A stretch of DNA of 64,000 bases from Candidatus Iainarchaeum sp. (GCA_021161465.1 JAGHAM010000023.1:8895-72894); one strand, 5' to 3'; shown: positions 23,636 to 56,427, counted from the stretch's first letter. Numbers and translations: made by a program. Notes: generated by a model not told the origin, from the sequence alone.

Positions 23636-26600
23636 TTGCAAATGGGAATTGACGAGATATACGCTAAAATTGAAGATAAATATTACGCTTTTTTGGATTA
23701 CCTACAAAAGAGAGGCATCCCCGTGTATTCAGTCATCGATCCGATAGAGCACGCTGGAATACCCTCTCTGCCGCTTCTGGTTGGCTTGCTCATACTAATC
23801 CTTGGGCTAGCGTATTATACAACGGCGGGCCCAGTGGGTGAGGATGTTACGCTGACTATAACCTCAAATGGTGTTGCTGTCACTGACGCCCAAGTAAAGG
23901 CACTGCTTGATGGAACTACAATCAAATCGGTGGTAAGCAGGAATGGGGAAGCCATCCTAAGTGGATTGCCACCAAACAAAAATATCACTATAACAATTGA
24001 TAAACCTGGTTGCGCGTTGTGGTCCAAGACTATAACACCATCGGAAATTAATGACCTTAACCCCCAGCTGCAGTGTGAAAGTGCCATATACTCCTGCCTG
24101 GACATATCAAGCGACATGGTGACGGCATATGTACAGGATAAAGACAGCATCCCCCCAACTTCATGCGAAGTTAGAGTACACCCACGTAGCAACCCATCCA
24201 CATCTATAGCTGTTGGTTGGAAAGTTGAAAACGGGGTGCTTCACATAGAAGACCCCTCACAAGACAACTGCCCAAGTAAGGATGATTATGTCGCTATACT
24301 GTGTGACAATGGAGATTACAACAATACCATATCTGGACTGCTATCTGACATAAAACTTAAGGGAAGCATAACACTCACAACAACTCAACCACCAGAAAAG
24401 CCAAATGCAACCGAACTTCCCAAGATACATATACATGTACAATCAGACACTGGACACCCTCTTGATGGTATAATAGTAAAAGCTGTCGATGCACAATGCA
24501 ATGACAGAGCATCAGACTTTGCAAACGCCGTGCTCCAGGCAGCCACCGGACCAAATGGTGATGCCACATTGCAGATACCTAATGGGCAAGATTTTTATCT
24601 AGCTGCATCCGACAAGAGTGGAGTTTACAATGAGTATTGCAACTCTGACGATAAGTACACGTCAAGCCTTGATATGGAGGCCAAAAATATTACAATAGTT
24701 ATGAGAGTGGGCTCAGGAACAAAAATAGAAGTTAGAGAATCTGGAACGCAAGAGCCCATCCCGGGCGCGCTCGTCACAGTGAAAGACGAGACCGGCAGAA
24801 GTGTGGGAACACCAATACTTACTGATTCCTCTGGAGAAGCAAACTTTGTCCTCTATACTGGCAAGAGCTACACCGTTGAAGTGAGGCACAGAGCTTATGA
24901 GCTCATAAAAGACACAGTAACTGGGGGAGAAGACGCCTACATATACATGGACCCCGTTGACATAACCCAAACAGGAAATCTTGAATTGACAACGGTAAAG
25001 GCGTACGGCACAAAGGACAGGCTCGGTGGGGTAACAGTCCAGCTGGTGCGGAATGATACAGTTTATGCCGAGATTAAGACAGACCGCTCGGGTTATTACC
25101 TATTAACCAATGTAGTTGCTGGCGACTACCAGACTAAAGTTCTGCCACCGGGGGGAGTCAACTATCAGAGCGGCCCAGACGTGACAATAGCGCCACAAAA
25201 TACCACCAAGACAACCATAGAAGTCAAACCAGAGAAGGTAACCCTAAGTGTCATAACCTATGTTGAAATGGGCGGTAAGAAACTCAGAAAGCAGAACGTA
25301 AAGGTTGAAATGTGGGACGCACGTTACGATGAAAAAATCGAAGAAAAGACATCAGGCATAGAGAGAAAAGTGGATTTCACTGTTGATAAATGCTCTGAGG
25401 TTTACTTCGTGCTTAGCTACGCTGAAAATGAAGGTCCCTATGCTGGCAAAAAGTATGGGCCCCTGACCAGTGACCCTGAAACTTACTGTGGGTCAAGAGA
25501 GATAAAAGATTTAGTGTTGAAAGAAAAGCCAGACCAGACTACAGTTAGTTTAACAGTAACTACACCCCAGGGTGATGAAGTAGACCAGCTGATTCCTGGT
25601 AACCATTACAATGCATTGCTTGAGGTAGCACTCCCAGAATACACAAAGAAGAACACCTACAATCAGGTTGATGTTGAGATGTTCGTTGGTGAGACTGGAA
25701 GCCTGCTCAACACAGAAAGGACTCCTGTGATTATAGGCACCGTCGGCCTGCAGGACCTAGCAACACAGGACCCTTATATATCAGACGTCTTCAAATCTGA
25801 TGACTACAGCTTCGGCCAGCAGCCAAGCAGAGAGGAAACAGGACCTAGCAAGTACATTAAGATAACTATAACCAAATACACTCCGGGTACATATGTAGCC
25901 AGAATCCCCTTGTATGTAAGGAAGTTAGCTGATTACGAAACCACTAAGATAAGTTACAAGGCAACGTGGGTCCCCCCAAAAGGGAACAGTATATGCTCTG
26001 AGGAAGGATGCCTCTGGACACGCAATAGTTACCAGATAGTTCCAGAAGGCACACCACAGCTTTACGGCCTTGACTCCGGAGCGTTTTACGCTTACAAAGC
26101 ATGGCTCACTGCAAGCAAAAATGGCTCACCAATAACAATAGACACACCTATAACACAAGACGCTTACTTCTACCTGCACATCAATGCAACTGCAAGAAGC
26201 GACATAACAAGTTGGGGAGTTAAATTTGAAACCATACCAGAGATAGCAGAGCCCATTGCCTATGAAGGAACGATATACAGGGCTAGTGGAGCAACAACAG
26301 AGATAACATCAACAGGATTAACTGGTTATACGATAACAAATGACAAGGATATCTATGCACTACACAGCGATGACCAGCTTTTGTTGACTGTCACTATGAA
26401 AGCAGTTTCGCCTGGCAGATGCTCTCTGGTACCATTCAATGACCTTGCACACTCGCTAAGCTTTAAGGTATCAGAGGTTCCACTACTCAAAAAAGAAACC
26501 CTAATTGCTGGTGTAACCGCAACCCTACAGGCCAAAAGCTTGTTTGAGAAAGGGCAGGATTACGCTAAGGACCTCTGGGCTAGTTATGACGTAGAGAATG

Positions 26601-29600
26601 AAACCCTGCCAACCAACTACAAGAAATTCAAGCTGATATTCCAATTCGGCAACACAGCGGGAGAGACTATAAATGCAAAACTTGTCCTGGATGCAAAGGA
26701 CAAGAGCCTATCATTTACCAATGTAACAGTAGATGGTGAATCCAACCCGGGAACAGGCACATACATACAAACTACTGAATTCGAAGTGCCATCAAGTGGT
26801 GCTGAAGTTGTGATAGAAGGAGAGGGAACAACCCAATCAACAAGCAACATGGACATATACTTCTGGGAACAAGACACACCAAGGCCAGACACACCATGGG
26901 CAACCATAAGCTATGGTAAAATTGATTACTCTGCTAGCATTAAAGCGTACGAGAAAGGAGCTGTATTAAAAGGCGTCTCCGAGAATGCAGACGAGGTCAG
27001 AGTCTGGGTTTACAAGAGCGTTGATGATTCTGTATCCAGTATCGGAGGAGGTATTATCGAAGGGGACCATGTCAAGATAGCTTACGACAACAACTCAGTG
27101 ATTGAATGGGCGTCTTTAGAGCCATCTGGACCCTACTTTAAGTACGTAGTCCCTGAAGATAAACCAATCAGGGGAAAACTAACAGCAATCATCACGAGCT
27201 CGAAATTTGGCGAGATTGATGAAACACTAAGCTCGTCTTACGTCAGCTTTACACCGAAAAGCACAAACATAAAAGATTTCCTGAACATGAACTTGGTCTC
27301 TAACGAGGAGAAGACAAAAGATATAATAGTAGCCAGCCACTACAACGAGCCTCTTGATATGACCATAGGAAACATCCAAAAAGACGGATGGAAATTCTCA
27401 CTCGAAACAACTATATACTCACTAAAGCCGGGAACAGCAACAGTGTTCATGAAGAGAGAAACCCAGAAAGGGAGTGGCAAGGTAACCATACCTGCCAAAG
27501 GGAAGGCAGTAATTAAAGTTACCGCAAGCCCTGTTGACGTGAAGTGCAGGTACAACGAAACGGCCTTGCTCCAACTTGATGTGGAGAACGTCAGGAAGCC
27601 TTATGTGTATTCCTTTGCCTTAAACTGTACCAATGGCACTTCCGGCGTAAGTTATACTACTGCAGTACCGACAGACCATATAGTCAGGCTAGACATAGAC
27701 CCATCAACTGTCACGCGCTTTGATTGCTTTAACAATAGTGCTGAGAGTGGATTGGACACAGCGTACCTTTGCGACGCTGAGCAGTTTGGGGTGTCTCTGC
27801 TTGATGCAGCCTGGGCACTTTACACAGACGATTACTCTGTTGAACACTCTTATTTCTATTCACTTGGAAAAGATGAGTTAGGTCAGGAGGGGCTATCACA
27901 AATTCTCAGTAGGTATGGGGACAAATTTGAGATAAGCCATGTATACAACAGTGAGGACTCTGCCAAAGCTACAAAAACTACAGACATAGTCCTAGATGGA
28001 AAAGCTGGTTGTGGCATCAATAAGGTAGTCCTAACTAAGATAAACCATGATGAAGACATCAGGATAACTATAACAACTAACAGCAGTGTTCCATGGTGTG
28101 GTAGAGCAGCCCACGCCTATTTGATAGGCCTGCTAAACTACGACCAGAACTTAAGGCCTACCCTCGGAAAATACTACTCGTTCGATACAAGCATGGAGGG
28201 TGAAAATGTAATAGATGCAATACAGTACGCTAAGAAACAGGGCAACTCCATATCGAACACAATGTTATTCAGCTATGGTTCTGCCGGTGAAAGTTATTCT
28301 GCCCAAACCATAGTCAATGCAAGAGCTGGTGGGAGACCGCAGAGTTACATAAAATACAAAGACTGCGAAATCATGTCCGGCACTGATTGCCCAATATTTG
28401 CGATTAACTTCTTTACAACCCTGAAAGAACCAATAATAGGTTACTTTGATATAGACAACAAGGACGACATACATGTTGGTTTGGTATACGACAGGAGCGA
28501 GATTACCACTGAAGGTGCGGGGAACCAGCTGGACACCTACCGGGCATTATTCATAACCCGGCTCTTGGATTATGCTGTTTCTGGGAATATGGGCCAGGGC
28601 ATATGGATTGGCTCCAACAACAGCCAGATGATTTACATCCCAACGAAAGACACAAGCCAAAATATTGTTGACTTAAGCCCTGTTACGCAAAGAGTTTTGG
28701 TTTATGGTAAGAATTACTATGATGTGGAAAATGAGGAAATTACAGGTAACAGGAGCGTCCACGTGCACATAGACATAGATGACGAACCGCGCTATTGTGT
28801 CGTTGGCAACCTCAAACCAGATGGAACTATAACTGATTCGCAGGAAGAAACACCCGTATTCCAACCAAACAGCAAAGACTGGCCATATGGTATTGATGTA
28901 TTTGACTGGACATTACTACCTGGCAATGGAAGAAAACGGGTTGTAGCTTACTGTATGGATAAGAATGGTGTCACTTCCAGGATAAGTGTGGGTGAGATTC
29001 TACTTGACACTACAGGTATGCTAGTGTTCAGGGGCGAGCAATATCCAAATACACTCAGCATGTACAAACCAATGATAACTAAAGACCTGTTTTATCACTT
29101 TATCGTGATGAATAAATATGGAGAAACTACCAAATGCTGGATGGAATACAAGGATAAAGAGTATATGACAGAAGGGGAGATTAGCTTAGGTACTGCACCG
29201 GAGGATAAAAACATATGCAACAACGGTCAGAACGACAACAGTCCAATTCCTGGAGTCTCAGATAACTGGCAGATAGATGATGGCTGCTGCTATCCTGTAG
29301 GTGGAAATTCAGGAAATGTTGAGGGCAGCGGAACAGAAAAAACATACTTCTTCAATATGCAGGAATTCACCTGCAACAGCCCGATAGTTGAAACGGAAAA
29401 CGAGGAGATTCCTGTAGAGATATGGTGCATGAACAGCTTAGGGCAAAAGAAAAAATTAATTGATGTTAACTTATACAGGCAAAGCACCGACGCACCAATG
29501 TTTGTTCTACCGGGGGACTTTACATTCTCTGTAAATGGAACCTACGAAAACGGTGTTATGACCAGCAACTATGGAGGTCAAGGGTTATACTTTGACAGGA

Positions 29601-31669
29601 ACATTGTATGGAACTCAACCGAAAATGGACTTGAAGACACCTGGCACCCCCTACAACTTAACAAAGAAATAGAAACGGGAATAGGCCTAAAAATCACTAA
29701 AAGCGTTGGCAAGAATGATGTCATGATACATGATAAACCAGACCTTGAAGGAGATTGGGAAGATGAACTCACAAAGGAGAGCGATAAGGTATATACACTC
29801 AAATTCATAGCTAGTGATAATGATGGTGTTGGCTCATGTATAGCAAGAATCCAACACAAAACAGATGGGAGTTATTACCTAAAATCATGCAAAGTAGTAG
29901 AGAAACTTGGGACAACTACCCCAAAGAAGGTTATATACTCTTGCCCGATGGAGCTACTGGAAGGTCCAAATGACATTACAATCAACTGCACAGACTTAAC
30001 TGGAAAAACCAATACAGGTAGATTCACGGTCACTCTAGACGAACAAGGCCCAGAGATAGTGAAAGATAGCATAAAAGTGGGTAAGTATGGGAACATAGAC
30101 GAACAAGGTACAAGAGTAAGAGCCCCAGACATAAACTTCACAGTCAAGGATGACTACTCTAAACCAGTTGAATGTAATTTGACCATCCCGCCTGCAGAGA
30201 TTTACAAGAACAATGGCTATAACTTTTTAACAACAACATATGAGTGTGAGCTAACACCAACTGGCGACCACACTGTGCTCGCCGAGTGCACAAGCCCAGA
30301 CTTCTCTGTGCTGTTCGTTAATCTTGACCCAAGCACGTGGGGGTTCTCATGCAATGATTCTCTCGGAAACGTGAGAAAGCAAGATGTGTATATGCCAAAA
30401 GGGTTGGGTGAGGAGGCTCCATCCATACTACAACTGAAGGATGACATAATGGAAGCCTGCAAGATAATAAGATACAAAAGAAGTCAACAGTACATAGAGG
30501 ACAAAGGTTTCATAGACCTAGGAGAAAATGGTTCAGTTGAGGTCCGTGATGGCGGCCAGATAGACAGGGATGGTATCCTTATGGAGATATACTACAAGAA
30601 CGACGGGAAGAGTGTAACTAGGAAAGACTTAGCTAGCCATATGAAATCACTTAATATTGATGCAGGTGTGCCAAGAGCCGCTTCCTGCTCAAAGCAAGCT
30701 GTTTGTGGAACCTCAATTGACTTAGTGCTAAAATATGCCACTGCAAACGTTGGTTCGACGATAGTGAATAAAGAAGTGGCAGAACAAGCTGAGAAGCAAC
30801 AGAAGGGATTGATTAGGAGAATATTCTCTGAATTGTATCAAAAAATAACAAAGAAAACAACTGAAGAAGTTAGTAGTGAAGTAACAGAAAAAGCAATTAA
30901 AGGTATGAAGATGCGGGCAGGGAAGGTACTCAAAGGAAGTATGAGTGCAGAGAAATTTGCGAAAAAATTCAATAAAGAATCTGTTGATGAAATTGTAAAT
31001 TTCTTTAAGAAGAATCCAGAGAAATATAAAGATTTGATAATTTCTAGTAAAAAAGATGTGAATGGGCTACCAAAACTGCTGGCCAAAGGAGAGTATAAGA
31101 CAGCAGGAATTACATTGGCAGGCATTGCAAAGAATGTCCCTGAAGCATCACCTATACTGGTAAAAGGCTTTGGAACAACATCACCTGAGGTAGCTACGAA
31201 GGCCATAGAAAGAATGTCAATGGCCATAACTAAGGAGGGTGTAGGCAAATGGTTCGTGAAGATGCTTATCATAGATGACATAAGTCGTATGCTACCTAGG
31301 GCGATTGCCGGAGATTATGCAAAGTATCTCACAGGTATAGAAGAAACACTTGATTCAAGGTTCCCAGGAGACCTGACAGATGGTGACTGTGACACTTCTT
31401 ATGACTTCTGGTCAAAAGTTGGTGCTAACATTGATGTCTTCCCACTCATTGGAGATTATGTAAAGGCGTTCACTCCAGACCCGTTCCAAACAGTGGTGTG
31501 CAGTCCAAAGAAACTGGAAGGGGGAAGATTGTATATAATTAGTGTGAAAGGGGCACAGGTCAACTTGGATTCCAAAGAGATGCCAACATGGGCACAGGTC
31601 ATGGGCAAGTGCTTTGACTCATGTGCAGACTACCAGTGCTCGGTAACAATCGTCGAGGAGAAGAAGTGA
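23636..31669 (+). CDS. giant (2677 aa) N-terminally membrane-anchored surface protein, paralog 1
   Basis: A single uninterrupted ORF. The N-terminus has a roughly 45-aa cytosolic segment (EIYAKIEDKYYAFLDYLQKRGIPVYSVIDPIE) followed by a TM helix (LPLLVGLLILILGLAYY). The large ectodomain is rich in T/N and N-glycosylation sequons. A/T box (AAAATATATATATTCAT) upstream. Confidence 0.75.
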   Translation: MQMGIDEIYAKIEDKYYAFLDYLQKRGIPVYSVIDPIEHAGIPSLPLLVGLLILILGLAYYTTAGPVGEDVTLTITSNGVAVTDAQVKALLDGTTIKSVVSRNGEAILSGLPPNKNITITIDKPGCALWSKTITPSEINDLNPQLQCESAIYSCLDISSDMVTAYVQDKDSIPPTSCEVRVHPRSNPSTSIAVGWKVENGVLHIEDPSQDNCPSKDDYVAILCDNGDYNNTISGLLSDIKLKGSITLTTTQPPEKPNATELPKIHIHVQSDTGHPLDGIIVKAVDAQCNDRASDFANAVLQAATGPNGDATLQIPNGQDFYLAASDKSGVYNEYCNSDDKYTSSLDMEAKNITIVMRVGSGTKIEVRESGTQEPIPGALVTVKDETGRSVGTPILTDSSGEANFVLYTGKSYTVEVRHRAYELIKDTVTGGEDAYIYMDPVDITQTGNLELTTVKAYGTKDRLGGVTVQLVRNDTVYAEIKTDRSGYYLLTNVVAGDYQTKVLPPGGVNYQSGPDVTIAPQNTTKTTIEVKPEKVTLSVITYVEMGGKKLRKQNVKVEMWDARYDEKIEEKTSGIERKVDFTVDKCSEVYFVLSYAENEGPYAGKKYGPLTSDPETYCGSREIKDLVLKEKPDQTTVSLTVTTPQGDEVDQLIPGNHYNALLEVALPEYTKKNTYNQVDVEMFVGETGSLLNTERTPVIIGTVGLQDLATQDPYISDVFKSDDYSFGQQPSREETGPSKYIKITITKYTPGTYVARIPLYVRKLADYETTKISYKATWVPPKGNSICSEEGCLWTRNSYQIVPEGTPQLYGLDSGAFYAYKAWLTASKNGSPITIDTPITQDAYFYLHINATARSDITSWGVKFETIPEIAEPIAYEGTIYRASGATTEITSTGLTGYTITNDKDIYALHSDDQLLLTVTMKAVSPGRCSLVPFNDLAHSLSFKVSEVPLLKKETLIAGVTATLQAKSLFEKGQDYAKDLWASYDVENETLPTNYKKFKLIFQFGNTAGETINAKLVLDAKDKSLSFTNVTVDGESNPGTGTYIQTTEFEVPSSGAEVVIEGEGTTQSTSNMDIYFWEQDTPRPDTPWATISYGKIDYSASIKAYEKGAVLKGVSENADEVRVWVYKSVDDSVSSIGGGIIEGDHVKIAYDNNSVIEWASLEPSGPYFKYVVPEDKPIRGKLTAIITSSKFGEIDETLSSSYVSFTPKSTNIKDFLNMNLVSNEEKTKDIIVASHYNEPLDMTIGNIQKDGWKFSLETTIYSLKPGTATVFMKRETQKGSGKVTIPAKGKAVIKVTASPVDVKCRYNETALLQLDVENVRKPYVYSFALNCTNGTSGVSYTTAVPTDHIVRLDIDPSTVTRFDCFNNSAESGLDTAYLCDAEQFGVSLLDAAWALYTDDYSVEHSYFYSLGKDELGQEGLSQILSRYGDKFEISHVYNSEDSAKATKTTDIVLDGKAGCGINKVVLTKINHDEDIRITITTNSSVPWCGRAAHAYLIGLLNYDQNLRPTLGKYYSFDTSMEGENVIDAIQYAKKQGNSISNTMLFSYGSAGESYSAQTIVNARAGGRPQSYIKYKDCEIMSGTDCPIFAINFFTTLKEPIIGYFDIDNKDDIHVGLVYDRSEITTEGAGNQLDTYRALFITRLLDYAVSGNMGQGIWIGSNNSQMIYIPTKDTSQNIVDLSPVTQRVLVYGKNYYDVENEEITGNRSVHVHIDIDDEPRYCVVGNLKPDGTITDSQEETPVFQPNSKDWPYGIDVFDWTLLPGNGRKRVVAYCMDKNGVTSRISVGEILLDTTGMLVFRGEQYPNTLSMYKPMITKDLFYHFIVMNKYGETTKCWMEYKDKEYMTEGEISLGTAPEDKNICNNGQNDNSPIPGVSDNWQIDDGCCYPVGGNSGNVEGSGTEKTYFFNMQEFTCNSPIVETENEEIPVEIWCMNSLGQKKKLIDVNLYRQSTDAPMFVLPGDFTFSVNGTYENGVMTSNYGGQGLYFDRNIVWNSTENGLEDTWHPLQLNKEIETGIGLKITKSVGKNDVMIHDKPDLEGDWEDELTKESDKVYTLKFIASDNDGVGSCIARIQHKTDGSYYLKSCKVVEKLGTTTPKKVIYSCPMELLEGPNDITINCTDLTGKTNTGRFTVTLDEQGPEIVKDSIKVGKYGNIDEQGTRVRAPDINFTVKDDYSKPVECNLTIPPAEIYKNNGYNFLTTTYECELTPTGDHTVLAECTSPDFSVLFVNLDPSTWGFSCNDSLGNVRKQDVYMPKGLGEEAPSILQLKDDIMEACKIIRYKRSQQYIEDKGFIDLGENGSVEVRDGGQIDRDGILMEIYYKNDGKSVTRKDLASHMKSLNIDAGVPRAASCSKQAVCGTSIDLVLKYATANVGSTIVNKEVAEQAEKQQKGLIRRIFSELYQKITKKTTEEVSSEVTEKAIKGMKMRAGKVLKGSMSAEKFAKKFNKESVDEIVNFFKKNPEKYKDLIISSKKDVNGLPKLLAKGEYKTAGITLAGIAKNVPEASPILVKGFGTTSPEVATKAIERMSMAITKEGVGKWFVKMLIIDDISRMLPRAIAGDYAKYLTGIEETLDSRFPGDLTDGDCDTSYDFWSKVGANIDVFPLIGDYVKAFTPDPFQTVVCSPKKLEGGRLYIISVKGAQVNLDSKEMPTWAQVMGKCFDSCADYQCSVTIVEEKK

Positions 31670-31713
31670 AGGTCGCTACGAAAAAGGGTCTCTTGCATCT
31701 TTGCCAAGCAAAA

Positions 31714-31724
31714 CTTTAAATAAT
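31714..31724 (+). promoter_or_regulatory. TATA-box-like element (CTTTAAATAAT) about 21 nt upstream of the start of giant protein 2
   Basis: A/T box at the spacing expected for a leaderless archaeal transcript. Analogous boxes lie upstream of 9645, 11915, 18038, 18716, 23636 and 38849. Confidence 0.35.
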
Positions 31725-31744
31725 CCTATTTGGTATTCTAAATC

Positions 31745-34700
31745 ATGGCACTTGTAGATATTTACCATCAAATAGAGGACAACTACTATTTCTTCCTTGA
31801 CTGGCTAGATGAAAAAGGAATTCCGATATACAACGTAGTTGACCCAATAGAAGCAAAAGGCATCCCAACGTTCCCACTTGCTGTTGGGATGGTGCTTCTA
31901 ATCCTCTTGCTATTGCTATCCTTAATAATAGGTATGGGCACTCAAGCAAACATGAACGTGAATGTAACCGTTACCACCAATGGCAATGCGCTGGCAGATG
32001 CCTCTGTTGTAGCCATCCAGGATGGGGAAGAAGTGAGTATAAAAACTACAGGTGATGACGGAAAAGTTTCACTCACAATTCCAAAAGCAGAAACGAGAAT
32101 AAACGTAACCGCAGAAGGGTGCCAATCTCAGGAGAAGGAGATAAATGAATCCGGGAACCTGAGCTTTGAACTAACATGTGGGGGAAAACCTGCTGGTTGC
32201 ATACCTATTTCAGCAACCATAAGCATGGTCAGGCTGACTGGTGATGACAACAAAGCACCGAAGAACTGCCACGTAACTATCTTAGATGATAAGGGAGACC
32301 CAACAGGTATAGAATGGCGCGTTGATGGCTCAAAGTTGTATCTTCCTGACCCTGATAAATATTGTATTAAGGAGAATTACACTGTCCAGATTTCATGTAC
32401 TGGGTACAAGCTGGTTGACACAGGAAAAAACATTATGAGTGAAATAAATGGGATGGGTGAGCTTGAGTTGCCATCAACAACTACACCTCCTGAGGACAAG
32501 TGTGCTCTTGGAGAAGAATGGAATGAAACTCTTGGGAAATGTGTAGAGAAACCAGTTACATGTCCAACTGGTGAGAAATGGGACAGCACATTAGAGATGT
32601 GTATTCCAGAACAAGTTGATGACGAGTATTCAATATATGTCATTGTAAAGAACAACAACACAGCCTTGTCTGGGATTCTTGTGACTGCCATAAGCTCATC
32701 TGGAAGTCAGTTAACAGAAGGCACCACCCAGGATTATACAGATAATGCTGGCAAGGCAGAGCTGTCCCTGAAAAAAGGCCAGAAGTTTAAGATAAAAGCA
32801 GAAGATGAAGCAGGAAAGTATTCTATGGTCATAACCAAAGAGTATACCGCTGACGCCACAAAAACCATCAACATCAGCATGCCAAAGGGAAGCCAGACTA
32901 CAATAAGGGTTATTGACAAGGAGACAAAGGAAAGCATTCCTTCTGCAACTGTCCTGCTCTACAAGGGGACTGAGGCATACGCAGCATTTACTACTGATAA
33001 AAATGGAAAAGTTGGTCTGACACTGCCTCCAGGAGTAACATATACCGCTTATGCATATGCCAATGGCTACAAGACCGATAAAGGCACAATCGCCGCTGGA
33101 AGCGCCATTACAATAAGCCTCCAGAAGGTATATGCACTTGAAGCAGGTAACCTAACGCTAAAAGCAGAAAATGCTTTGGACGGAAGCTCTATGGAAGGTG
33201 TTACATTCAGAATTTTCTCAAAGATTGGTAACGTGCCTTATGGTGGGTGCATCACAGGCTCAGATGGCAAATGTGCCATTTACTCCCTGCCAGAGGGCAG
33301 TTATTCTGTATACGCAACACCAAAGGGCAGTTACGATGAAGAGGACGTAGGTTCAGTTGATGTAAAGCATGGGGAAACAGTAGAAGAAACAATTAAGATT
33401 TACCCCTCCACGTTCAAATTAACGGTTTACACATGGCTGAACGGTGGCACCCCTAAGAGATGCGCGTCTGGGGCACATGTCACAATTGGGACTACAAATG
33501 ACATAGGTGTAAGCACCGAGCTAAACGACAGCTACACTGACAACAATGACTGCAAAGCAGAGTTCCATGTTTATAAGGGTCAGGATATCTGGATAAAGGC
33601 AACCTACACAGACGGTGGAAACATTCTCAGGGCAAGTGCCACATACACAGTAACTGGAGAAAAAGAAATAAACCTGATACTAACGCAACCAACAGCTAAT
33701 GTCTCGTTCAGCATGGGCGCGCTGGATATGGCTCCTGGTGATGTAAAGACCGGGACGCTATCCTTTGGTCTCCCATATTATGACAGCGACGGAACCAGGT
33801 ATAAAAACATTGAAATTAAGCTATGGGTTGGTGAAGAGGGGGATACTACAGACGCAGTAAAAACACCAGTCATGATAAACGGTTTTGAAGACTCTAACAT
33901 GCAAGGTGCTGCTGTATACGGGTACAAGAACTACCCGGGGACCACCATAGTTAGCGATACAAGCGGCGAGTACCTGAAATACCTTAAATTTGTAATCAGC
34001 AACAGCTCCGCTTACTACTCCAACAACATCAATACTTCTGTTAACGTGCCGATAAAGTTGAAAGCAAAAAATGCTTTTGAAGCCGACCAAACAATAGTCC
34101 ATGTGAGGGGTAAGTGGACCCCACCAAAAGGAAATCCAATAACTGCCGACTTTGATTTCAGGATAAATCTAACAGCGGGTACAAGCTGGTGCATGCTCCC
34201 TGGCGGAAGTGATTTCAGTGCATTTAAGGCCGGCTTCACGATAACCCCTGATGACAACGAGAGCCACTGGGAAGAGCATATGAGCACCACGAATGGCTCG
34301 GAATTCTACCTTAACATAAGAGCGATAGCCGCCAAGCAGCTTGACAGTTATAAGATAAACATGAAAACCCAGCCATCATATGGGTATTCTGTACTGAAGC
34401 TACTTCAATACTTCATTGGAAAGAATAGCCCACCAACAAATTACAAAGATGTAAACGAAGATGTATCTAGTAGTGGTATGGACCTAGAACCTGCTGACGC
34501 CTCAAAGGGTCTAGGTGACTTATATCAGTTAAACCAGGATGATGAAATCTCTTTGAGAATCAAGCTGAAGGCAATTCACAACGCAACTGGTACCAACTGG
34601 ATAAAACTATTCGATGATGAATCATGCAAGAAATCTTTTGAAATACGGGATGTGACCAACAAACCTACACCACTGCCAAACGTCACGGTTGAGGAGCACT

Positions 34701-37700
34701 ATTTCGTACAAGTTTGTCCACCAGAAGGTTACACAGGAACTATATGTAGATGGGGAGAAAGTGATGCCGATAAAATTGATAACCAGGAACTGGAACTCCC
34801 AACCTACTCGGCAGTATATGGCGAGGGCAGGAACTTTAGCATAAATCTTACCTTCAACAATATCGGTAGCACACCTGCAAACGTCCACATTGAAGCTGTA
34901 GATTCTGTGGGGGGCATAAGCTCATTGCATACGCCAGCAGATTTCACCATCCAGCCAAATAACCAGACAGAAGTTAACATAACTGGAAAGGGCGCTTCTG
35001 CCCAAGCAGGCACGATTAAATTGTACTTGTCCACATCGGCTAATGGCGCTAAAACACTATGGAGAACTATAAAGTATGGACCAGTTGACTATAACATAAC
35101 CTTGTGGGCAAATGCCTCTATCAGCGCTGGCGGAAACGAGCTGAAGGAAGAGTTAGTCAAACAAATAGACAGCGTAAAAGTGGTAGTATTCAGAAACAAC
35201 AATCCCACAACAGGCATAACAAACAATGGAAAAGTAGAATTCAATTACATCGACCCTGTGAATGGGCAGACCACTAAGGAGCTAAGAGGGGTGGATAATT
35301 ATTACATCTTTAACCATGACGCTATGAGTATCACAGCAGGGGATAGGAGTGCTGAAGTACATGTGGAGTATGGTGAGTTCGGAGGCCTAACAAAAGGTTA
35401 CCCCGTGCAGGGGATGGAGGTAACACCAGACGGAACGAGGTTCCCAGCTGATGGAGATTACACGCTGAGTGTGACCAATCTTAGAGAATCCAAGGTTGTG
35501 GGTGTGAACTCATCATGGCTCAGGTCTGCTAACTTTACACTGGATATCACCGGGTTTGATGTAGACAATGCTAAAAACAGAGGGTATGACACAATGATAC
35601 AAGTTTTCATCTACAACAGCACCAATGACCTTGTGAATACAATAACTCCAGATGGTGTCGTGAACATAACCCTGCCTGCCAAGGGAAGAGCGGACATAAA
35701 TGTCACCGTGGGGCTTTTGGAGAACAAGATATCAGCCTGCATCCAGGAACCATTCGTTGGAGAGATAAAGGTAACCCCCTGTTACCAGGACACAAAAACA
35801 TATGAATTCCATTATAGTTGTGCTGAGCTTGTTAGATACCAGCCAGCTAACAGGAAAGTTGAGTACATATTCACAAAAGACAACACAAGCTATACCGAGA
35901 GCCCTGCAATAACAGTGACCTCACTAGCTAACAAAAACCTGAATGTATTATTTGGATTCGAAAAGTATAACTCATGGTTAGACACATCATTCGAAAACTT
36001 TGAAATTAATATAACTACATTCTATCAGAATGGTGCAAAAAAGCAGACGTGCTCCCTAAATACCGAACATGATGGAACTATCAAGTGCGAGTTACCTCCA
36101 AACGGTACAGCGCAGGTGTCCATAAAGGCGAGTATAGATCCTGATAATCCGCCTGAAAAAGGAGACCTTTACATATCTTATCTACATATAACCCCAGATA
36201 GATGGCTTGAAGAGAACTTCACTTTGACGTTTAGTTATAGCGAAACTGGGGAGTACATATCCAAGTACACTGTGCATAGGGACACACATGAACCATTAGA
36301 CATAACCAAAGAAGAGGTAATAGATAATGATAATGTCTGCTGGTTTGGTGCTGGCCATTACACTTTATGCGATAGCACACAACTCTCGAAAGTTATCGAC
36401 GTTATTGGTAAACACATAAATGCGAACGGAGGGCTATTAAGGAAAGAATTTGCATTCGGGAATGATATCGCCACCATTAGCACAATCCAAACAATTGCTG
36501 GAAGCCAGGTGAAGGAAACTGAAGACGGCGCATCATATGGCGATATCGTGGTCAACATATTGACACGAGATAAGAAGATAACCTGTGGTGTGGTAACCAT
36601 AACCGCACAACAGGTAGGGGGGTTAACGCGTGTCAATATAACTGTGGATAAAAACCAACCATGGTGCGATAATGGGGAGGAACCCTTCCTATTCACTGGA
36701 TTAGCTAATTACGACGAGGATTTAGCTGAGAGCACAGGCGCGCCAGTGAAATTTATGAGGTTTGATGGAGACGCTACCGAGTTAAGCAAATTCAGGGATG
36801 CATTTGAGTACATAGACCCAGATTACATCCCAGTAGTCTTTGGATATGCTTATGCTAATGGGGAGGTATTTGATACTGGCAGTGAGAACCCGCCAATAGT
36901 GGTCCACTACAAAGAGTATAATTGCTCAGGGACGCCACCCGAAGGAACCAACGACTGCATAGACCTACCATCGTACTTACAATTCATCTATCGGGATTTC
37001 TACAACAATCCCGACTCACCAGATGGTGTAGGGTACTTTAGTTATCAGTATATAAGTACAACAGAGACAAATAATTTCTTCGTAGGTATAGCATACAAGA
37101 AGGCAATGGACGAAAGCGAACTAGACGAGCTGAGGAGGATACTGGCAAGCAACTTGATAAGCTACTGGACTATGGGAAACACATCTTGTATACAAGATAA
37201 CACAGGTGAGTTAATAGGAGAAAATTTAAATGGCAAAGTTTGCTCGATGATTGGCAAATTACCAAGAGGTGAGGGTGCCATAGACCTTAAAACCTTTGAC
37301 CCTACCAATAGAGGGTTTAAAGACTCAACTGGGAGCGATGGCAAGATTGGGCTGAACCTTACATTCGGTTCAGGTACAGTGTCATGTAGGATATGGAACA
37401 ACTGTGGTTCAAATACCTGTAAAAACGAAACCCTGATAAAAGGAGTAAATTGGGATAAGGATAACACCTATGTAGAAGTGCCTGACTGGACTGTCCCAAC
37501 AGATACTGGAGGAGGGAAACAGATTAAAGCAGAGTGCTATTCTGGTGGATACAAGGGTACTGGTGACCCTGTTTCTGCCGTCGTAGTTGTCGACAAAACA
37601 GCACCTACAGTCAGTGAAGATGAAAACTGTGACAGCGAGCCATGCTTTGAGGAAGGAGATGACCATGACCTGACATTCACAGCCACTGATAAGTATGGTA

Positions 37701-38404
37701 TAGCTTCATGCGAAGCATTTAGGGTCTATAGCGACGGTTCAGTTACACCATTAAGCTGTGGGCGTATAGGTGATTCAGATAGATTCAGGTGCTCTGGTAT
37801 AGAAAAGCCGCCAGAAGGCCAGTACCACCAGTATCCATCAGAGTACTCAGGTGACTGCGGTTCGTACCACCTATCAAGTGATGGGAGGGCGTGTCTTGAC
37901 ATAATAAACTACACCTGCACAGACAAGAATGGGAATACCGCGGAGGATAGGCAGATAAAAATCTTCTGGGGAGAGAGTAGTATTGAGGTACATGTAAAAG
38001 AGATTTACTCCCAGCTTATCAACTTAGCTAATAATGGTGTGGTAGAATACGGAAAGGTGGAACCAATTGAGTCTGGTAAAGCTGTTGTATACAACACAAT
38101 AACCAAAAATGGAGATACTCAATCTGTACCTGTGTACTACACAAGTTCAACTGAAAACGTGATAAAGTTCAACATCACTGGGAAATTTGGCATTAGCGAC
38201 CTTAGTTGCGATGACGCACATATCATAGGGCCTAATAGCGATGAGCTCACTCCCTCACAAGACCACGACTCAGCACCAGGATGGAAAGACTATACACTAG
38301 ATTTCAACCTGGAAAGCGAAGGTGAGTATGTTGTGAATATAACTTGCATAGGAAATGGGAATTACGAGGATACGCCCTCTATGAAAGTGCCCGTAAAAGA
38401 ATAG
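31745..38404 (+). CDS. giant (2219 aa) N-terminally membrane-anchored surface protein, paralog 2
   Basis: N-terminus MALVDIYHQIEDNYYFFLDWLDEKGIPIYNVVDPIEAKGIPTFPLAVGMVLLILLLLLSL is clearly homologous to the N-terminus of the 23636 gene. It shares further internal motifs with it (W.PPKGN; ...PWC...L.NYD.(N/D)L). ACTTTAAATAAT box about 22 nt upstream. Confidence 0.75.
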   Translation: MALVDIYHQIEDNYYFFLDWLDEKGIPIYNVVDPIEAKGIPTFPLAVGMVLLILLLLLSLIIGMGTQANMNVNVTVTTNGNALADASVVAIQDGEEVSIKTTGDDGKVSLTIPKAETRINVTAEGCQSQEKEINESGNLSFELTCGGKPAGCIPISATISMVRLTGDDNKAPKNCHVTILDDKGDPTGIEWRVDGSKLYLPDPDKYCIKENYTVQISCTGYKLVDTGKNIMSEINGMGELELPSTTTPPEDKCALGEEWNETLGKCVEKPVTCPTGEKWDSTLEMCIPEQVDDEYSIYVIVKNNNTALSGILVTAISSSGSQLTEGTTQDYTDNAGKAELSLKKGQKFKIKAEDEAGKYSMVITKEYTADATKTINISMPKGSQTTIRVIDKETKESIPSATVLLYKGTEAYAAFTTDKNGKVGLTLPPGVTYTAYAYANGYKTDKGTIAAGSAITISLQKVYALEAGNLTLKAENALDGSSMEGVTFRIFSKIGNVPYGGCITGSDGKCAIYSLPEGSYSVYATPKGSYDEEDVGSVDVKHGETVEETIKIYPSTFKLTVYTWLNGGTPKRCASGAHVTIGTTNDIGVSTELNDSYTDNNDCKAEFHVYKGQDIWIKATYTDGGNILRASATYTVTGEKEINLILTQPTANVSFSMGALDMAPGDVKTGTLSFGLPYYDSDGTRYKNIEIKLWVGEEGDTTDAVKTPVMINGFEDSNMQGAAVYGYKNYPGTTIVSDTSGEYLKYLKFVISNSSAYYSNNINTSVNVPIKLKAKNAFEADQTIVHVRGKWTPPKGNPITADFDFRINLTAGTSWCMLPGGSDFSAFKAGFTITPDDNESHWEEHMSTTNGSEFYLNIRAIAAKQLDSYKINMKTQPSYGYSVLKLLQYFIGKNSPPTNYKDVNEDVSSSGMDLEPADASKGLGDLYQLNQDDEISLRIKLKAIHNATGTNWIKLFDDESCKKSFEIRDVTNKPTPLPNVTVEEHYFVQVCPPEGYTGTICRWGESDADKIDNQELELPTYSAVYGEGRNFSINLTFNNIGSTPANVHIEAVDSVGGISSLHTPADFTIQPNNQTEVNITGKGASAQAGTIKLYLSTSANGAKTLWRTIKYGPVDYNITLWANASISAGGNELKEELVKQIDSVKVVVFRNNNPTTGITNNGKVEFNYIDPVNGQTTKELRGVDNYYIFNHDAMSITAGDRSAEVHVEYGEFGGLTKGYPVQGMEVTPDGTRFPADGDYTLSVTNLRESKVVGVNSSWLRSANFTLDITGFDVDNAKNRGYDTMIQVFIYNSTNDLVNTITPDGVVNITLPAKGRADINVTVGLLENKISACIQEPFVGEIKVTPCYQDTKTYEFHYSCAELVRYQPANRKVEYIFTKDNTSYTESPAITVTSLANKNLNVLFGFEKYNSWLDTSFENFEINITTFYQNGAKKQTCSLNTEHDGTIKCELPPNGTAQVSIKASIDPDNPPEKGDLYISYLHITPDRWLEENFTLTFSYSETGEYISKYTVHRDTHEPLDITKEEVIDNDNVCWFGAGHYTLCDSTQLSKVIDVIGKHINANGGLLRKEFAFGNDIATISTIQTIAGSQVKETEDGASYGDIVVNILTRDKKITCGVVTITAQQVGGLTRVNITVDKNQPWCDNGEEPFLFTGLANYDEDLAESTGAPVKFMRFDGDATELSKFRDAFEYIDPDYIPVVFGYAYANGEVFDTGSENPPIVVHYKEYNCSGTPPEGTNDCIDLPSYLQFIYRDFYNNPDSPDGVGYFSYQYISTTETNNFFVGIAYKKAMDESELDELRRILASNLISYWTMGNTSCIQDNTGELIGENLNGKVCSMIGKLPRGEGAIDLKTFDPTNRGFKDSTGSDGKIGLNLTFGSGTVSCRIWNNCGSNTCKNETLIKGVNWDKDNTYVEVPDWTVPTDTGGGKQIKAECYSGGYKGTGDPVSAVVVVDKTAPTVSEDENCDSEPCFEEGDDHDLTFTATDKYGIASCEAFRVYSDGSVTPLSCGRIGDSDRFRCSGIEKPPEGQYHQYPSEYSGDCGSYHLSSDGRACLDIINYTCTDKNGNTAEDRQIKIFWGESSIEVHVKEIYSQLINLANNGVVEYGKVEPIESGKAVVYNTITKNGDTQSVPVYYTSSTENVIKFNITGKFGISDLSCDDAHIIGPNSDELTPSQDHDSAPGWKDYTLDFNLESEGEYVVNITCIGNGNYEDTPSMKVPVKE

Positions 38405-38848: not shown

Positions 38849-39175
38849 ATGAACCTTGGATTCCTTGGTGACATAAAAAACACCATAGACCTGTTATTCC
38901 TTGGATTTAAGGTCGTAGTTCTTGTATTCCTTGTAGGATGGGTTAGGGGCCACCTGGGCGGAGGGATAATCGCAACAGTTGCCATACTCATCATTGGATG
39001 GCTTGTGCTCTTCAAATACTTCTATTTATTTGGGCCAATGGCAGTAATTTACCTGATATTGATAGTTGGAGGTAGTGGTGTTATAATGGATATAGCCTTT
39101 GGTAGGTCCATGTACCTCGAGGAACCATACATAGGAAAGGATTTGATGGATGGAAGGAGGCCCCCACCAATATGA
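38849..39175 (+). CDS. small membrane protein (3 TM), array member 1
   Basis: 108 aa, very hydrophobic. A TTTTTTATATTTTT box sits about 25 nt upstream of the ATG. Confidence 0.45.
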   Translation: MNLGFLGDIKNTIDLLFLGFKVVVLVFLVGWVRGHLGGGIIATVAILIIGWLVLFKYFYLFGPMAVIYLILIVGGSGVIMDIAFGRSMYLEEPYIGKDLMDGRRPPPI

Positions 39176-39548
39176 AGGTGAAAACTTGAGAACAAGTGAG
39201 ATAAAACTAAACAAGAAAGGTTTTCTCCCGCTTATAGCTGGGATTCCAACAGCCTTGATAGTTTTGATAGTGGTAATACTCCTACTGGTGCTAAGCCCTG
39301 CTATCCTTATGCAAATTCGTGAAATAAAGCTGCTTTTCCAGATATTCGCTGCGATAATCATTCTCTCATGGGTCAGAAACACCGTTGGCCCTGGGATGGT
39401 ATCAATCCTGATAAGCTTAATCCTGATATATATCTTCGTCCTTATGGTCCCCGAACTTCTCGGCGCGATATGGGCAATGTACATCCTGTTGACATTCGGC
39501 TTGTGGTCAATGATATTCTGGGGTCTGCCTTTGATTTTCAGGAAGTGA
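39150..39548 (+). CDS. small membrane protein (about 4 TM), array member 2
   Basis: 132 aa. Overlaps the previous gene by 26 nt. The alternative internal start is uncertain. Confidence 0.4.
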   Translation: MEGGPHQYEGENLRTSEIKLNKKGFLPLIAGIPTALIVLIVVILLLVLSPAILMQIREIKLLFQIFAAIIILSWVRNTVGPGMVSILISLILIYIFVLMVPELLGAIWAMYILLTFGLWSMIFWGLPLIFRK

Positions 39549-39635
39549 TTAAAAATGAAGAGTATAATGTTGAGTGCCTGTCAGAAGAGCATAAAGTTAA
39601 ATAGCGGTATTGCAAAAAAATAACTTGGTGGATAG

Positions 39636-39878
39636 ATGGGAGACATAGTCAATGATTTGAGAGTGGCTCTGACACTAGTCGTACTTGTCTACCTTGCCCA
39701 GTGGGCCATCGCTGGCACGGGCTCCAGGAAAGTAGGGATAATAGTTGCACTGGTAATAGTGTACCTAACAGTCTGGCAACACCTCATGGTTCTTATCATC
39801 GTGATAGCATTCTTCTTCGGATACGCTTTCTTTGAAGCCTTTGAGAGCACGTTTATACCACTGGATCAGGGAGGTTGA
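39636..39878 (+). CDS. small membrane protein (2-3 TM), array member 3
   Basis: 80 aa: MGDIVNDLRVALTLVVLVYLAQWAIAG... Confidence 0.4.
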   Translation: MGDIVNDLRVALTLVVLVYLAQWAIAGTGSRKVGIIVALVIVYLTVWQHLMVLIIVIAFFFGYAFFEAFESTFIPLDQGG

Positions 39879-39879
39879 A

Positions 39880-40176
39880 ATGGACACTTTTACTCTCGTA
39901 GTATTCCTGATTCTGATAATAATAGCCATACAGGCTAAAGTCTATGCAATAGCGCTGCTCCTAATGGCATTCCTCTTGTTCACCCTTAAGTCAAGAACTA
40001 TGATATTGATTGCAATAGTGGCTGGAGTTATAGGGTTCTTCTTAAACTATTCGTTCAATGTGGAGTTGCAGGTAATAATGATATTGATTGTGGTCCTGCT
40101 CCTTGCTGGTGCCATGCTCACTTCAAGGAGTGAGGGACCTGGCTCATATACGCCAAGTGCCTTTGGGGTGTTTTGA
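39880..40176 (+). CDS. small hairpin membrane protein, MDT/SAFG family member 1
   Basis: ATG 39880 is preceded by GGAGGT. N-terminal MDTFTLVVFLILIII, two TM helices, C-terminal ...GPGSYTPSAFGVF. The ORF-track start at 39832 is probably too long. Confidence 0.5.
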   Translation: MDTFTLVVFLILIIIAIQAKVYAIALLLMAFLLFTLKSRTMILIAIVAGVIGFFLNYSFNVELQVIMILIVVLLLAGAMLTSRSEGPGSYTPSAFGVF

Positions 40177-40517
40177 TGGATACTCTGACCCTTTTGCTGC
40201 TGTCACTGATAGTTATCGTTGGATTCTACACTGAATGGTGGGTTGCACTGATTGGGGTAGTCCTTCTGGTCGCGTATATTTATGGTGCAAGAGAGGGGAC
40301 ACACGCGCCAGCACCTGCTGGTGGGGTCAAGGTGCGACCAATAATCGTACAAAGGCGTTACGTTGGTCCTGAATCAATATACCCAAGAGTGATGAAGATG
40401 AGAATCAGGCCTGACTGGGATACCAGACCGTGGTTTGAACAGGCATCCGGGGCATTTGGGCGCTTAATGGGATGGGCAACCAACGCTGGCAAACCAAGCA
40501 GCAAGAGTGAAGACTGA
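40176..40517 (+). CDS. small hairpin membrane protein, MDT/SAFG family member 2
   Basis: MDTLTLLLLSLIVIV, two TM helices, PAPAGGVKVRPIIVQ, C-terminal ...ASGAFGRLMGW. The ATG overlaps the previous stop (TGATG). Confidence 0.5.
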   Translation: MDTLTLLLLSLIVIVGFYTEWWVALIGVVLLVAYIYGAREGTHAPAPAGGVKVRPIIVQRRYVGPESIYPRVMKMRIRPDWDTRPWFEQASGAFGRLMGWATNAGKPSSKSED

Positions 40518-40573
40518 CAAACCATCAACATTTTTGCAGAAGATTTAAATAATTGAACTCCGATATTTTAATG

Positions 40574-40948: not shown

Positions 40949-40952
40949 TGAC

Positions 40953-41749: not shown

Positions 41750-41757
41750 GTGAGAAA

Positions 41758-42873: not shown

Positions 42874-42988
42874 ATCTAAACCTCAAAGTATTTAAAGCAC
42901 GATGTAATAAAAGACAGATAACAGCTATATAAAGGATTAGGGTGGTCCAACGAAAACTCTTGAACTTCCTCATGGCCCTTGGAGAGAA

Positions 42989-52753: not shown

Positions 52754-52757
52754 TTAC

Positions 52758-54690: not shown

Positions 54691-54695
54691 TTAGT

Positions 54696-56419: not shown

Positions 56420-56427
56420 GTGACCGA

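Follow-up and report, generated by a model that had tools for sequence, protein, structure and literature searches.

Two very large open reading frames, A and B, lie in tandem within the window, the 64,000-nucleotide stretch of DNA that was analysed, from Candidatus Iainarchaeum sp., a tiny archaeon of the symbiotic (DPANN) type. They follow a type IV filament locus on the same strand.

9034-9612, minus strand: archaeosortase/exosortase-family protein (TIGR04178, 37.7 bits, cut-off 23)
11915-14200, plus strand: type IV filament secretion ATPase (FlaI/CpaF/GspE-like) with a ca. 285-aa N-terminal extension (Pfam T2SSE, 74.9 bits)
14181-16271, plus strand: 696-aa polytopic membrane protein, a putative platform by its position only
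16272-21029, plus strand: eight small ORFs, putative pilins by class-III-like N-termini read from the sequence
21524-23590, plus strand: 688-aa pilin-like protein (MHRGF/SVFTPMVG..., then a hydrophobic helix)
23636-31669, plus strand: ORF A in its longest form, 2677 aa from TTG, uninterrupted
23642-31669, plus strand: giant protein A, probable ORF, 2675 aa from ATG, with full-length orthologues P0002 and P0003
31745-38404, plus strand: giant protein B, 2219 aa, uninterrupted, with orthologues of 2331 aa (L001) and 2297 aa (L003)

The giant genes and the adjoining filament locus

The ATG at 23642, not the TTG at 23636, is almost certainly the true start of A, since the A orthologues begin with MGLDETY and the ATG is preceded by a Shine-Dalgarno-like GAGGGG box (6 nt upstream) and a TATA-like A/T-rich box (ca. 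45 nt upstream). A preliminary description of this DNA had called the two giants paralogous, and this was borne out: both ORFs are intact and BLASTP aligned them with 24% identity over ca. 1400 aa (E 8e-67), with a second aligned segment around a WC..NYD motif. The same description named assembly artefacts as a possible explanation of such long ORFs. These are ruled out by full-length, colinear orthologues of both proteins, in the same tandem order, in independent assemblies (2691 and 2331 aa at L001; 2877 and 2297 aa at L003). P0002 aligned to A with 100% coverage and 49% identity.

The filament ATPase matched PDB entries 2oap (1e-31), CpaF (5e-24) and FlaI (9e-22). The polytopic ORF overlaps the 3' end of the ATPase gene; its product gave no match to T2SSF or another Pfam model and none in the PDB. 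Nine ORFs of the window have class-III-like N-termini when inspected by eye, with [KR]-[GA]-x ([KR]-[GA]-[QYL] in the small ORFs) followed by a hydrophobic stretch. Their likeness to pilins rests on these N-terminal motifs, and no Pfam pilin model or other family was matched.

The N-terminal module and the bodies of the giants

Both giants consist of a short N-terminal module (N-module), one membrane helix and a long body in which the following features were located.

23642-23773, plus strand: N-module of A, residues 1-44 (AF2 pLDDT 95.6; logo; profile search, 953 clusters)
23765-23827, plus strand: TM helix of A, residues 42-62 (Kyte-Doolittle; AlphaFold)
24731-25249, plus strand: prealbumin-like/CnaB-like Ig domains of A (Pfam CarboxypepD_reg, SdrD_B and SpaA, all above cut-off)
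28094-28144, plus strand: WC..NYD motif of A, residue 1485 (motif scan; subfamily alignment)
30029-31666, plus strand: C-terminal 546 aa of A, the distal end (sequence; AF2 pLDDT 47, not interpretable)
31745-31876, plus strand: N-module of B, residues 1-44 (sequence comparison with A)
31868-31939, plus strand: TM helix of B, ca. residues 42-65 (Kyte-Doolittle)
32906-33121, plus strand: CarboxypepD_reg domain of B (Pfam, 51.6 bits)
36662-36715, plus strand: WC..NYD motif of B, residue 1640 (motif scan)

The shared N-terminal segment reported earlier is present in A and B with its motif, at 54% identity over 59 aa; an example head peptide is IEDKYYAFLDYLQK. AF2 predicted the N-terminus of A with high confidence (pLDDT 95.6) as two head helices (residues 3-23 and 28-37), the membrane helix (42-62) and a beta-sandwich. 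Both head helices are amphipathic; a G-I-P turn separates them and a G-I-P-S-L-P junction follows the second. The N-module is the best-conserved portion of these giants, with a mean pairwise identity of 55.7% as compared to 24.4% for the TM helix and 22.2% for the first Ig domain, and Y6, E10, D18, Y28, D32 and P40 are near-invariant in the logo. It is a real, strongly constrained element and, as had been described, not a standard signal peptide. It is acidic and places 38-44 aa before the hydrophobic span. The first 77-80 residues matched no Pfam model, ESPR included, at E≤1, the N-module had no PDB match, and whole A and B gave no NCBIfam match at E≤0.1. The segment therefore has no named domain, as had been supposed; it is a new domain family, borne by an already known kind of protein.

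An exhaustive profile search against 1.84 billion representatives returned 953 clusters at E≤1e-3, of which 287 reached E≤1e-10. Nearly all have the N-module starting at residue 2-10; apparent internal matches were spurious or due to ORF calls. Carriers are mostly 1500-3000 aa long. Among the best 150 matched clusters 77 are at least 1500 aa in length, and 65 of these 77 have exactly one TM segment, directly after the N-module. The named ones among 146 confirmed genomic sites are almost all Iainarchaeota/Diapherotrites or Micrarchaeota (DPANN), and no relatives were found outside these two phyla and unnamed archaea. Public names of the proteins are 'hypothetical', 'carboxypeptidase regulatory-like domain-containing' or 'thrombospondin type 3 repeat-containing'. 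Other large secreted proteins of the window have ordinary N-termini, so the N-module is specific to the giant family. Since it heads ca. 1000 clusters of giant proteins in two DPANN phyla, the N-module probably serves these proteins as a membrane anchor or as a handle for sorting.

In A, the scores for CarboxypepD_reg, SdrD_B and SpaA were 53.1, 34.7 and 25.8 bits (cut-offs 32.3, 29.7 and 23.1). The model of the first ectodomain superposed on LrpA, SpaA, BcpA and SpyCatcher at 1.0-1.5 Å over ca. 50 residues. No Pfam match to a PilY1/DUF2341-type domain was found in A or B. Over residues 1-600, A and B have counterparts in 55-97 of 141 giants, with the exception of B 151-300 (ca. 20-24), whereas their distal portions match only 4-20. 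The distal 546 aa of A, which comprise an Ig-like domain, a Lys-rich helical region and a Cys-rich terminal motif, have no counterpart in B. The bodies of the giants are rich in cysteines and one orthologue carries thrombospondin-type repeats. Internal motifs had also been described as shared. This is correct for the pair, with W.PPKGN at A 776 and B 791 and WC..NYD in both, but among the 141 other giants the first occurs in none and the second in 14. The statement that the ectodomains are packed with N-x-S/T sequons was too strong: A has 25 (20 expected from composition) and B, which is 1.7-fold enriched, has 41 (24 expected).

Membrane insertion, possible processing and gene linkage

The single membrane helix noted earlier was confirmed: Kyte-Doolittle analysis gave one segment in A (38-56) and one in B (45-63), no more, and AlphaFold placed a helix at 42-62 of A. 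Lys and Arg are biased to the N side of the helix (1.57, compared to 0.59 on the C side), the N side being richer in 71% of members. An N-in topology of the giants would fit this bias and the extracellular-type domains. The head has a mean net charge of -2.8, a negative value not usually expected on the cytoplasmic side of a signal-anchor. Export of acidic N-tails that depends on the membrane potential does occur, and the negative head would suit an inverted arrangement in which it is moved outward, as in the Pf3 coat protein, with the body in the cytoplasm. We consider this scarcely credible in view of the K/R bias, the sequon enrichment of B and bodies with CnaB/SpaA/SdrD/CarboxypepD_reg-type domains, thrombospondin-type repeats and many cysteines.

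The hydrophobic span starts at I39 and across the family has a median of 29 uncharged residues, of which 15-21 are strongly hydrophobic. Its outer end has clustered small residues, Pro and Gly (TTA/G in A, TQA/N in B), and cleavage by signal peptidase is therefore possible. The N-module and hydrophobic segment might accordingly form an extended cleavable Sec signal peptide that paces or routes the export of very long proteins and is then removed, an archaeal counterpart of the ESPR, YSIRK and KxYKxGKxW leaders; the fibre would then be kept at the surface in some other way or released. Conserved N-terminal extensions of signal peptides are established on giant bacterial adhesins, the N-module is almost confined to very long secreted-type proteins, and in both A and B a T-x-A precedes the first polar residue. 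Still, the acidic n-region of 38-44 aa is followed by a span that is long for a signal peptide and enters the first Ig domain directly, with no consistent A-x-A or other motif family-wide. Further points against cleavage are that neither C-terminal TM nor C-terminal anchor nor other retention signal was found in A and B, that the conserved part of the giants is membrane-proximal, and that the Pfam ESPR model was unmatched. We regard an extended signal peptide as a possible but rather unlikely explanation.

The preliminary description suggested that the N-module might dock or sort the giants to the neighbouring pilus machinery. The adjacency is real, the type IV filament locus being directly upstream, but docking is only partly supported: in a survey of related loci a filament ATPase lay within 10 kb at only 11-12 of 81. 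Filament-machinery genes were absent within 10 kb at most of these loci and many N-module giants are solitary, flanked by housekeeping genes. Tandem arrays of two or three giants occur at 34 of the 81. A large pilin-like gene is the commonest upstream neighbour and steadier than the ATPase: one encoding 300-760 aa is directly upstream of a giant at 20 of 62 evaluable loci and no more than three genes away at 23. This linkage may reflect shared gene-cluster ancestry, not physical interaction.

Giants that are themselves pilin-like subunits would have a long class-III-type leader in the N-module, cut at [KRA][GN]/IPSFP on the cytoplasmic face, and a helix that brings them into the type IV filament, or else onto its base or tip, as for bindosome substrates and modular minor pilins. 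Before assembly their topology would match that of a prepilin, A-like and B-like members have K/R-G ahead of I39 (AKG/IP in B), and the genes are downstream of nine pilin-like genes and the large pilin-like gene. However, positions -2/-1 are [KR]G in only 34 of 136 members (25%), and position -1 is Asn in 35%. The leader, at 38 aa, is acidic instead of short and basic, and conservation of the hydrophobic helix is low (24%), whereas the alpha1-N helix is usually the best-conserved part of pilins. With no Pfam pilin match at E≤10 and no prepilin peptidase (peptidase A24) found within the window, we think this proposal improbable.

The archaeosortase-like protein of the window keeps its Cys, Arg and His motifs, and its gene belongs to the same cluster as the pilin-like gene and the giants. 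At seven loci (L001, L003, L014, L016, L019, L025 and L083) an exosortase-family gene with these motifs intact is directly upstream of the pilin-like gene and giants, and no ORF with a C-terminal sorting tail was found within 10 kb. The order sortase-like, pilin-like, N-module giant recurred on an independent metagenome contig found via the sortase-like gene. Exosortase signals generally have a Pro-containing motif next to a TM helix, and the I-P-S-F-P junction with its helix might thus be an N-terminal counterpart of PEP-CTERM/PGF-CTERM; in a variant, the membrane Cys enzyme would clip the N-terminal anchor so that the fibre is freed or attached anew, in the manner of LapG on the retention module of LapA-type adhesins. 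Known signals, however, lie at the C-terminus, have their motif on the outer face and end in a basic tail, whereas here the motif would face inward with no basic tail, and the hallmark C-terminal motif, TM and basic cluster of exosortase substrates is not seen in A or B. A sortase-like gene is nearby at only 17-18 of the 81 loci, all of the 'G-IPSxP' subtype to which the window belongs. The 1544-aa protein encoded in the same operon as the window's enzyme appears the likelier substrate because it has a classical C-terminal TM and KKKKR tail. A sortase signal in the giants is for us distinctly unlikely. More broadly, head, I-P-S-F-P and TM might be a new N-terminal sorting signal read by the co-encoded archaeosortase-like enzyme or by the type IV filament system, in the latter case through the large pilin-like protein; we hold this to be unlikely. 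If true, giant fibres for host attachment would be mounted, and perhaps also released, by a pathway specific to DPANN.

Proposed role and comparison with known systems

The explanation that we prefer, with a probability of roughly 45%, is that A and B are DPANN-specific giant surface fibres, probably adhesins, held by an uncleaved N-in signal-anchor with a partner-binding acidic head. Residues 1-44 would form a small cytoplasmic head of two amphipathic helices with a G-I-P turn at the end of each; the I-P-S-F-P junction would join this head to a single helix in the cytoplasmic membrane. A stalk of CnaB/prealbumin-like Ig domains would begin straight after this helix and be kept across the family, with the distal two thirds of the giants variable. 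The head may act as a handle that retains the N-terminus inside the cell and resists pulling-out of the single helix, and may bind a conserved putative partner, in the cytoplasm or the membrane, responsible for inserting or positioning the fibres. In the subtype of the window, the fibres would be mounted beside a type IV filament apparatus, a large pilin-like protein and the co-encoded archaeosortase-like enzyme.

DPANN archaea are regarded as living in attachment to host cells, and to our knowledge few contact proteins of Iainarchaeota and Micrarchaeota have been described. A 44-residue tag on ca. 1000 clusters of surface proteins of 2000-3000 aa gives a sequence handle for candidate attachment fibres and merits its own domain-family entry. 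That the N-module is so extremely conserved, next to bodies that evolve fast, hints at a partner or a step in sorting yet to be discovered.

Several known systems resemble parts of this arrangement. ESPR (in autotransporters and TPS proteins), YSIRK-G/S and KxYKxGKxW are likewise conserved stretches before a hydrophobic segment, selective for very large surface proteins, and are thought to govern the routing or timing of export. They are basic, shorter than the N-module and belong to signal peptides that are cleaved off, whereas the 44-residue N-module is acidic, two-helical, unrelated in sequence and followed by an anchor-length helix. PilN, GspL and GspM, bitopic proteins of type IV pili and type II secretion in bacteria, have the arrangement proposed for the giants: one TM and an external domain are preceded by a short N-terminal segment that is conserved and cytoplasmic. 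The cytoplasmic peptide of PilN binds PilM. These are small machine parts, while the external part of the giants measures 2000-3000 aa and no PilM homologue is evident. Class III (prepilin-type) signals, including those of archaeal bindosome substrates, share the N-in orientation proposed for the giants, with a cytoplasmic leader before a hydrophobic helix, and the giant genes adjoin a type IV filament locus; the N-module leader differs in being 38 aa long, acidic and highly conserved, with a cleavage motif in a minority of members and an unconserved helix. PEP-CTERM/PGF-CTERM proteins similarly have a Pro-containing motif abutting a TM and an exosortase-family gene in the neighbourhood, but at the opposite end of the protein, on the opposite membrane face and with a basic tail that the giants lack.

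LapA/MpIBP-type RTX adhesins are, as is proposed for the giants, N-terminally held repeat fibres with a variable, ligand-binding end placed distally, and at some loci a Cys-type processing enzyme is encoded near the giants, as LapG is for LapA. That enzyme is of the exosortase family, whereas LapG belongs to the LapG-like transglutaminase family, and the RTX adhesins are exported by a type I system and plug a pore of the outer membrane instead of crossing an archaeal membrane with a single TM. Resemblance to the CnaB/SpaA stalks of Gram-positive pilins and MSCRAMMs, seen in the superposition of the first ectodomain and the Pfam scores for SpaA and SdrD_B, is at the fold level only, with no LPXTG motif and no class C sortase. 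The SPEARE giant proteins of Nanohaloarchaeota, also DPANN, reportedly have been proposed as mediators of host contact; they share the giant size of the N-module proteins and differ in phylum and domain content.

Giant genes and their N-terminal module

The two neighbouring giant proteins, A and B, are encoded by long, uninterrupted reading frames:

23636..31669 (+), giant A
31745..38404 (+), giant B, 2219 aa

The possibility, raised in the preliminary description, that these frames are assembly artefacts was ruled out: the genes are real, as colinear A and B orthologues occur in the same order in two independent assemblies. The biological start of A is almost certainly the ATG at 23642 (2675 aa), since the orthologues begin with MGLDETY and this ATG is preceded at 6 nt by a GAGGGG sequence and at ca. 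45 nt by an A/T-rich TATA-like box. A TTTAAATA-like box is found ca. 25-30 nt ahead of the ATG of B. The two proteins are paralogous, with 24% identity across ca. 1400 residues (E 8e-67) and 54% over the first 59 residues, and each has exactly one hydropathy-defined membrane segment, right behind the conserved stretch. The motifs described earlier as common to A and B are both present, but only W.PPKGN is private to the pair; WC..NYD also occurs in 14 of the 141 other giants compared and is a subfamily marker. Ectodomains packed with N-glycosylation sequons were confirmed moderately for B (41 vs. 24 expected) and not for A, which is not enriched (25 vs. 20 expected).

The conserved 44-residue N-terminal segment, or module, had not been recognized as a named domain, and this was upheld: no match was found in Pfam with the module alone (E ≤ 1), nor any match to the module in NCBIfam with the whole A and B proteins (E ≤ 0.1). 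Word-indexed protein searches with the module alone returned 1 and 3 matches, so that an exhaustive profile search was required. With a 49-position profile and 1.84 billion cluster representatives this search matched 953 proteins at E ≤ 1e-3, of which 287 reach E ≤ 1e-10. Nearly all of the 150 best matches have the module beginning between residues 2 and 10, and half of the 150 are at least 1500 aa long; the short members look like contig-end fragments. A single transmembrane helix directly behind the module was found in 65 of the 77 long members (≥1500 aa) of this set. Apparent internal copies of the module were rejected as spurious or due to ORF calling.

The module logo reads x-L-K-D-I-Y-x-K-L-E-D-K-Y-Y-x-F-L-D-x-L-D-x-K-G-I-P-V-Y-K-V-V-D-P-I-E-x-x-G/N-I-P-S-F-P, with Y6 (96%), E10 (99%), D18 (100%), Y28 (99%), D32 (96%) and P40 (99%) conserved. 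In 48 diverse members the mean pairwise identity was 55.7% for the module, 24.4% for the membrane helix and 22.2% for the first ectodomain. A scan of one genome per species gave 146 confirmed module sites. Named records with such sites belong almost entirely to Candidatus Iainarchaeum/Diapherotrites/AR10 or Micrarchaeota, the remainder being other archaea together with a single 'Nanobdellati' and a single 'Thaumarchaeota' bin. Public annotations of the module-bearing proteins are generic, and literature searches found no description of the module. The module makes up a new domain family, widespread and carried by giant surface proteins, and it may mark a putative new sorting route.

Predicted structure and membrane topology

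Residues 1-118 of A were modeled by AlphaFold from a 48-sequence alignment with a pLDDT of 95.6. The predicted head, which corresponds to the module, consists of helix 3-23, a K-R-G-I-P turn, helix 28-37 and an A-G-I-P turn, followed by helix 42-62 and a β-sandwich from residue 67. The head is acidic, with a mean net charge of −2.8, and each of its two helices is amphipathic (hydrophobic moment 0.46-0.72). It has no detectable relative among solved structures, and PDB sequence searches with A and B found nothing. The uncharged span starting at I39 has a median length of 29 residues. Lys and Arg are more frequent on the N-terminal side of the helix than on the C-terminal side (1.57 vs. 0.59), with an N-side excess in 71% and an N-side deficit in 6% of 51 scorable members. 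The body contains CarboxypepD_reg, SdrD_B and SpaA domains scoring over the Pfam cut-offs, and the first domain of the body can be superposed on pilin domains of the CnaB/SpaA type. From the charge bias and these body domains we infer an N-in, C-out topology.

The giant bodies are of a well-known kind, the Ig-repeat adhesin stalks. Of the 141 other giants, 55-97 match residues 1-600 of A and B, with a dip to ca. 20-24 at residues 151-300 of B, and 4-20 match the distal parts. Conservation declines away from the membrane, as would be expected of an N-terminally anchored fibre whose far end is variable. The extra C-terminal residues of A are common to A and four orthologue-level proteins:

30029..31666 (+), distal 546 residues of A, containing a Lys-rich helical stretch and a conserved terminal SC.D[YF].C.V motif

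AlphaFold gave no usable model of this part (5-sequence alignment, pLDDT 47).

The best fit is that module and helix together form a family-specific N-terminal signal-anchor. Cleavage of the module as an extended signal peptide is unlikely: the end of the hydrophobic span does resemble a c-region, but the span is long, the proteins have no other anchor and the proximal stalk is conserved. For the signal-anchor we propose that the folded, acidic cytoplasmic head would contact something specific, which would explain the strong selection on it. Three compatible roles can be envisaged. The head might fix orientation and resist extraction of a single helix carrying a fibre of more than 2000 residues, it might recruit insertion machinery, or it might position or cluster fibres beside a filament apparatus.

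Gene neighbourhood in the window and in related loci

Going towards the giants from upstream, their strand carries, in this order, a Cys-rich protein, an ATPase, a polytopic protein, and eight small ORFs with a 688-aa ORF. The sortase-like gene and its neighbour are on the opposite strand:

4425..9059 (−), 1544-aa protein next after the sortase-like gene, ending in PADW, a classical C-terminal transmembrane helix and KKKKRETP
9034..9612 (−), gene of the exosortase/archaeosortase family, scoring above the TIGR04178 cut-off, with Cys, Arg and His motifs retained
before the ATPase (+), Cys-rich secreted protein, 741 aa
11915..12770 (+), N-terminal extension (ca. 285 aa) of the GspE/CpaF/FlaI-type ATPase
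14181..16271 (+), polytopic protein in platform position, 696 aa
21050..21490, membrane protein, 146 aa
21524..23590 (+), large pilin-like protein, 688 aa

The ATPase extension has no Pfam or PDB relative and is a candidate site for lineage-specific partners. The 696-aa protein gave no family match, T2SSF, FlaJ and TadC included even at E ≤ 10, and no PDB match. In the eight small ORFs and the 688-aa ORF, the N-terminus shows the pattern [KR]-[GA]-x and then a hydrophobic stretch. Two adjacent small pilin-like genes, 16823..17296 and 17537..17998 (+), encode one and the same N-terminus, MLNERGQAFDAFKLLIAAVVA, suggestive of tandem duplication in the recent past. The large pilin-like protein and its homologues in 38 loci start with [KR]-G-F-[STN]-[LV]-F-T-[AP]-[LM]-V; the pattern is similar to the G|FTLIE prepilin motif of bacteria, Thr replacing Glu5, and no pilin model matches. 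Prepilin-like processing of the giants themselves would agree with their topology and context. It is nevertheless improbable, as the helix is unconserved, the leader is acidic and 38 residues long, and the motif statistics do not fit.

In region 38849..44401 (+), directly 3′ of B, a run of eight to nine small membrane proteins, among which several are paralogous, precedes a Cys-rich protein of 217 aa with an anchor at its C-terminus and a DUF87/HerA-like ATPase of 470 aa (21.2 bits, just under cut-off). Synteny of the small membrane-protein run extends to the related loci L001 and L003, and the group may form a separate membrane complex. A glycosylation-type cluster at 51404..59388, with two PMT_2/Alg9-like proteins, three GT2 proteins and one LPG_synthase_TM protein, fits a heavily glycosylated surface.

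Among 81 related loci, L001 and L003 carry the same gene set as the window with one block inverted, in the order sortase-like, pilin-like, giant A, giant B. Two or three module genes were present in 34 loci. The 688-aa pilin-like homologue occurs in 38 (39 with the window); where evaluable (62 loci), it directly precedes the first giant in 20 and is at most three genes away in 23. Of the 81, 17-18 have the sortase-like gene, 11-12 the ATPase and 10-11 the platform-like protein, and many giants sit among housekeeping genes. Docking of the module to pilus machinery, as suggested in the preliminary description, is thus plausible and unproven, with machinery genes nearby in a minority of loci only and the pilin-like gene as the steadier companion. 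In 19 loci a four-transmembrane protein of 150-170 aa lies between giants (L002, 17898..18359; also L010, L018, L020, L027, L028, L030, L040, L044, L047, L058 and others); it has no Pfam relative and was not detected in the window. Heads of the window's type ('G-IPSxP') are associated with the sortase-like gene and the ATPase, and 'N-IPSFP' heads with 'GFTLFTALV' pilin-like genes and the four-transmembrane protein.

Recognition or clipping of the giants' N-terminal signal by the archaeosortase-like enzyme was considered in view of their striking synteny. In other loci members of this family lie immediately before the pilin-like gene and the giants, and no ORF with a C-terminal tail is near. 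A reciprocal scan of metagenome contigs for the sortase-like gene gave two short contigs, of which the informative one reads sortase-like, pilin-like, module giant. We regard this activity as improbable because the signal would lie at the wrong protein end and membrane face, only one subtype has the enzyme, and a better substrate is available in the window. The sortase-like protein and the adjacent 1544-aa protein are likely an enzyme-substrate pair.

Comparison with known systems

The giants were rejected as the Micrarchaeota S-layer protein, a protein of ca. 101 kDa whose N-terminal signal or transmembrane segment is of the ordinary kind. The closest analogues of the module would be functional ones, none of them homologous: the conserved N-terminal signal-peptide extensions found on giant adhesins of bacteria, the N-terminal retention module of LapA-type adhesins and, for the head, the short cytoplasmic partner-binding tails of PilN/GspL.
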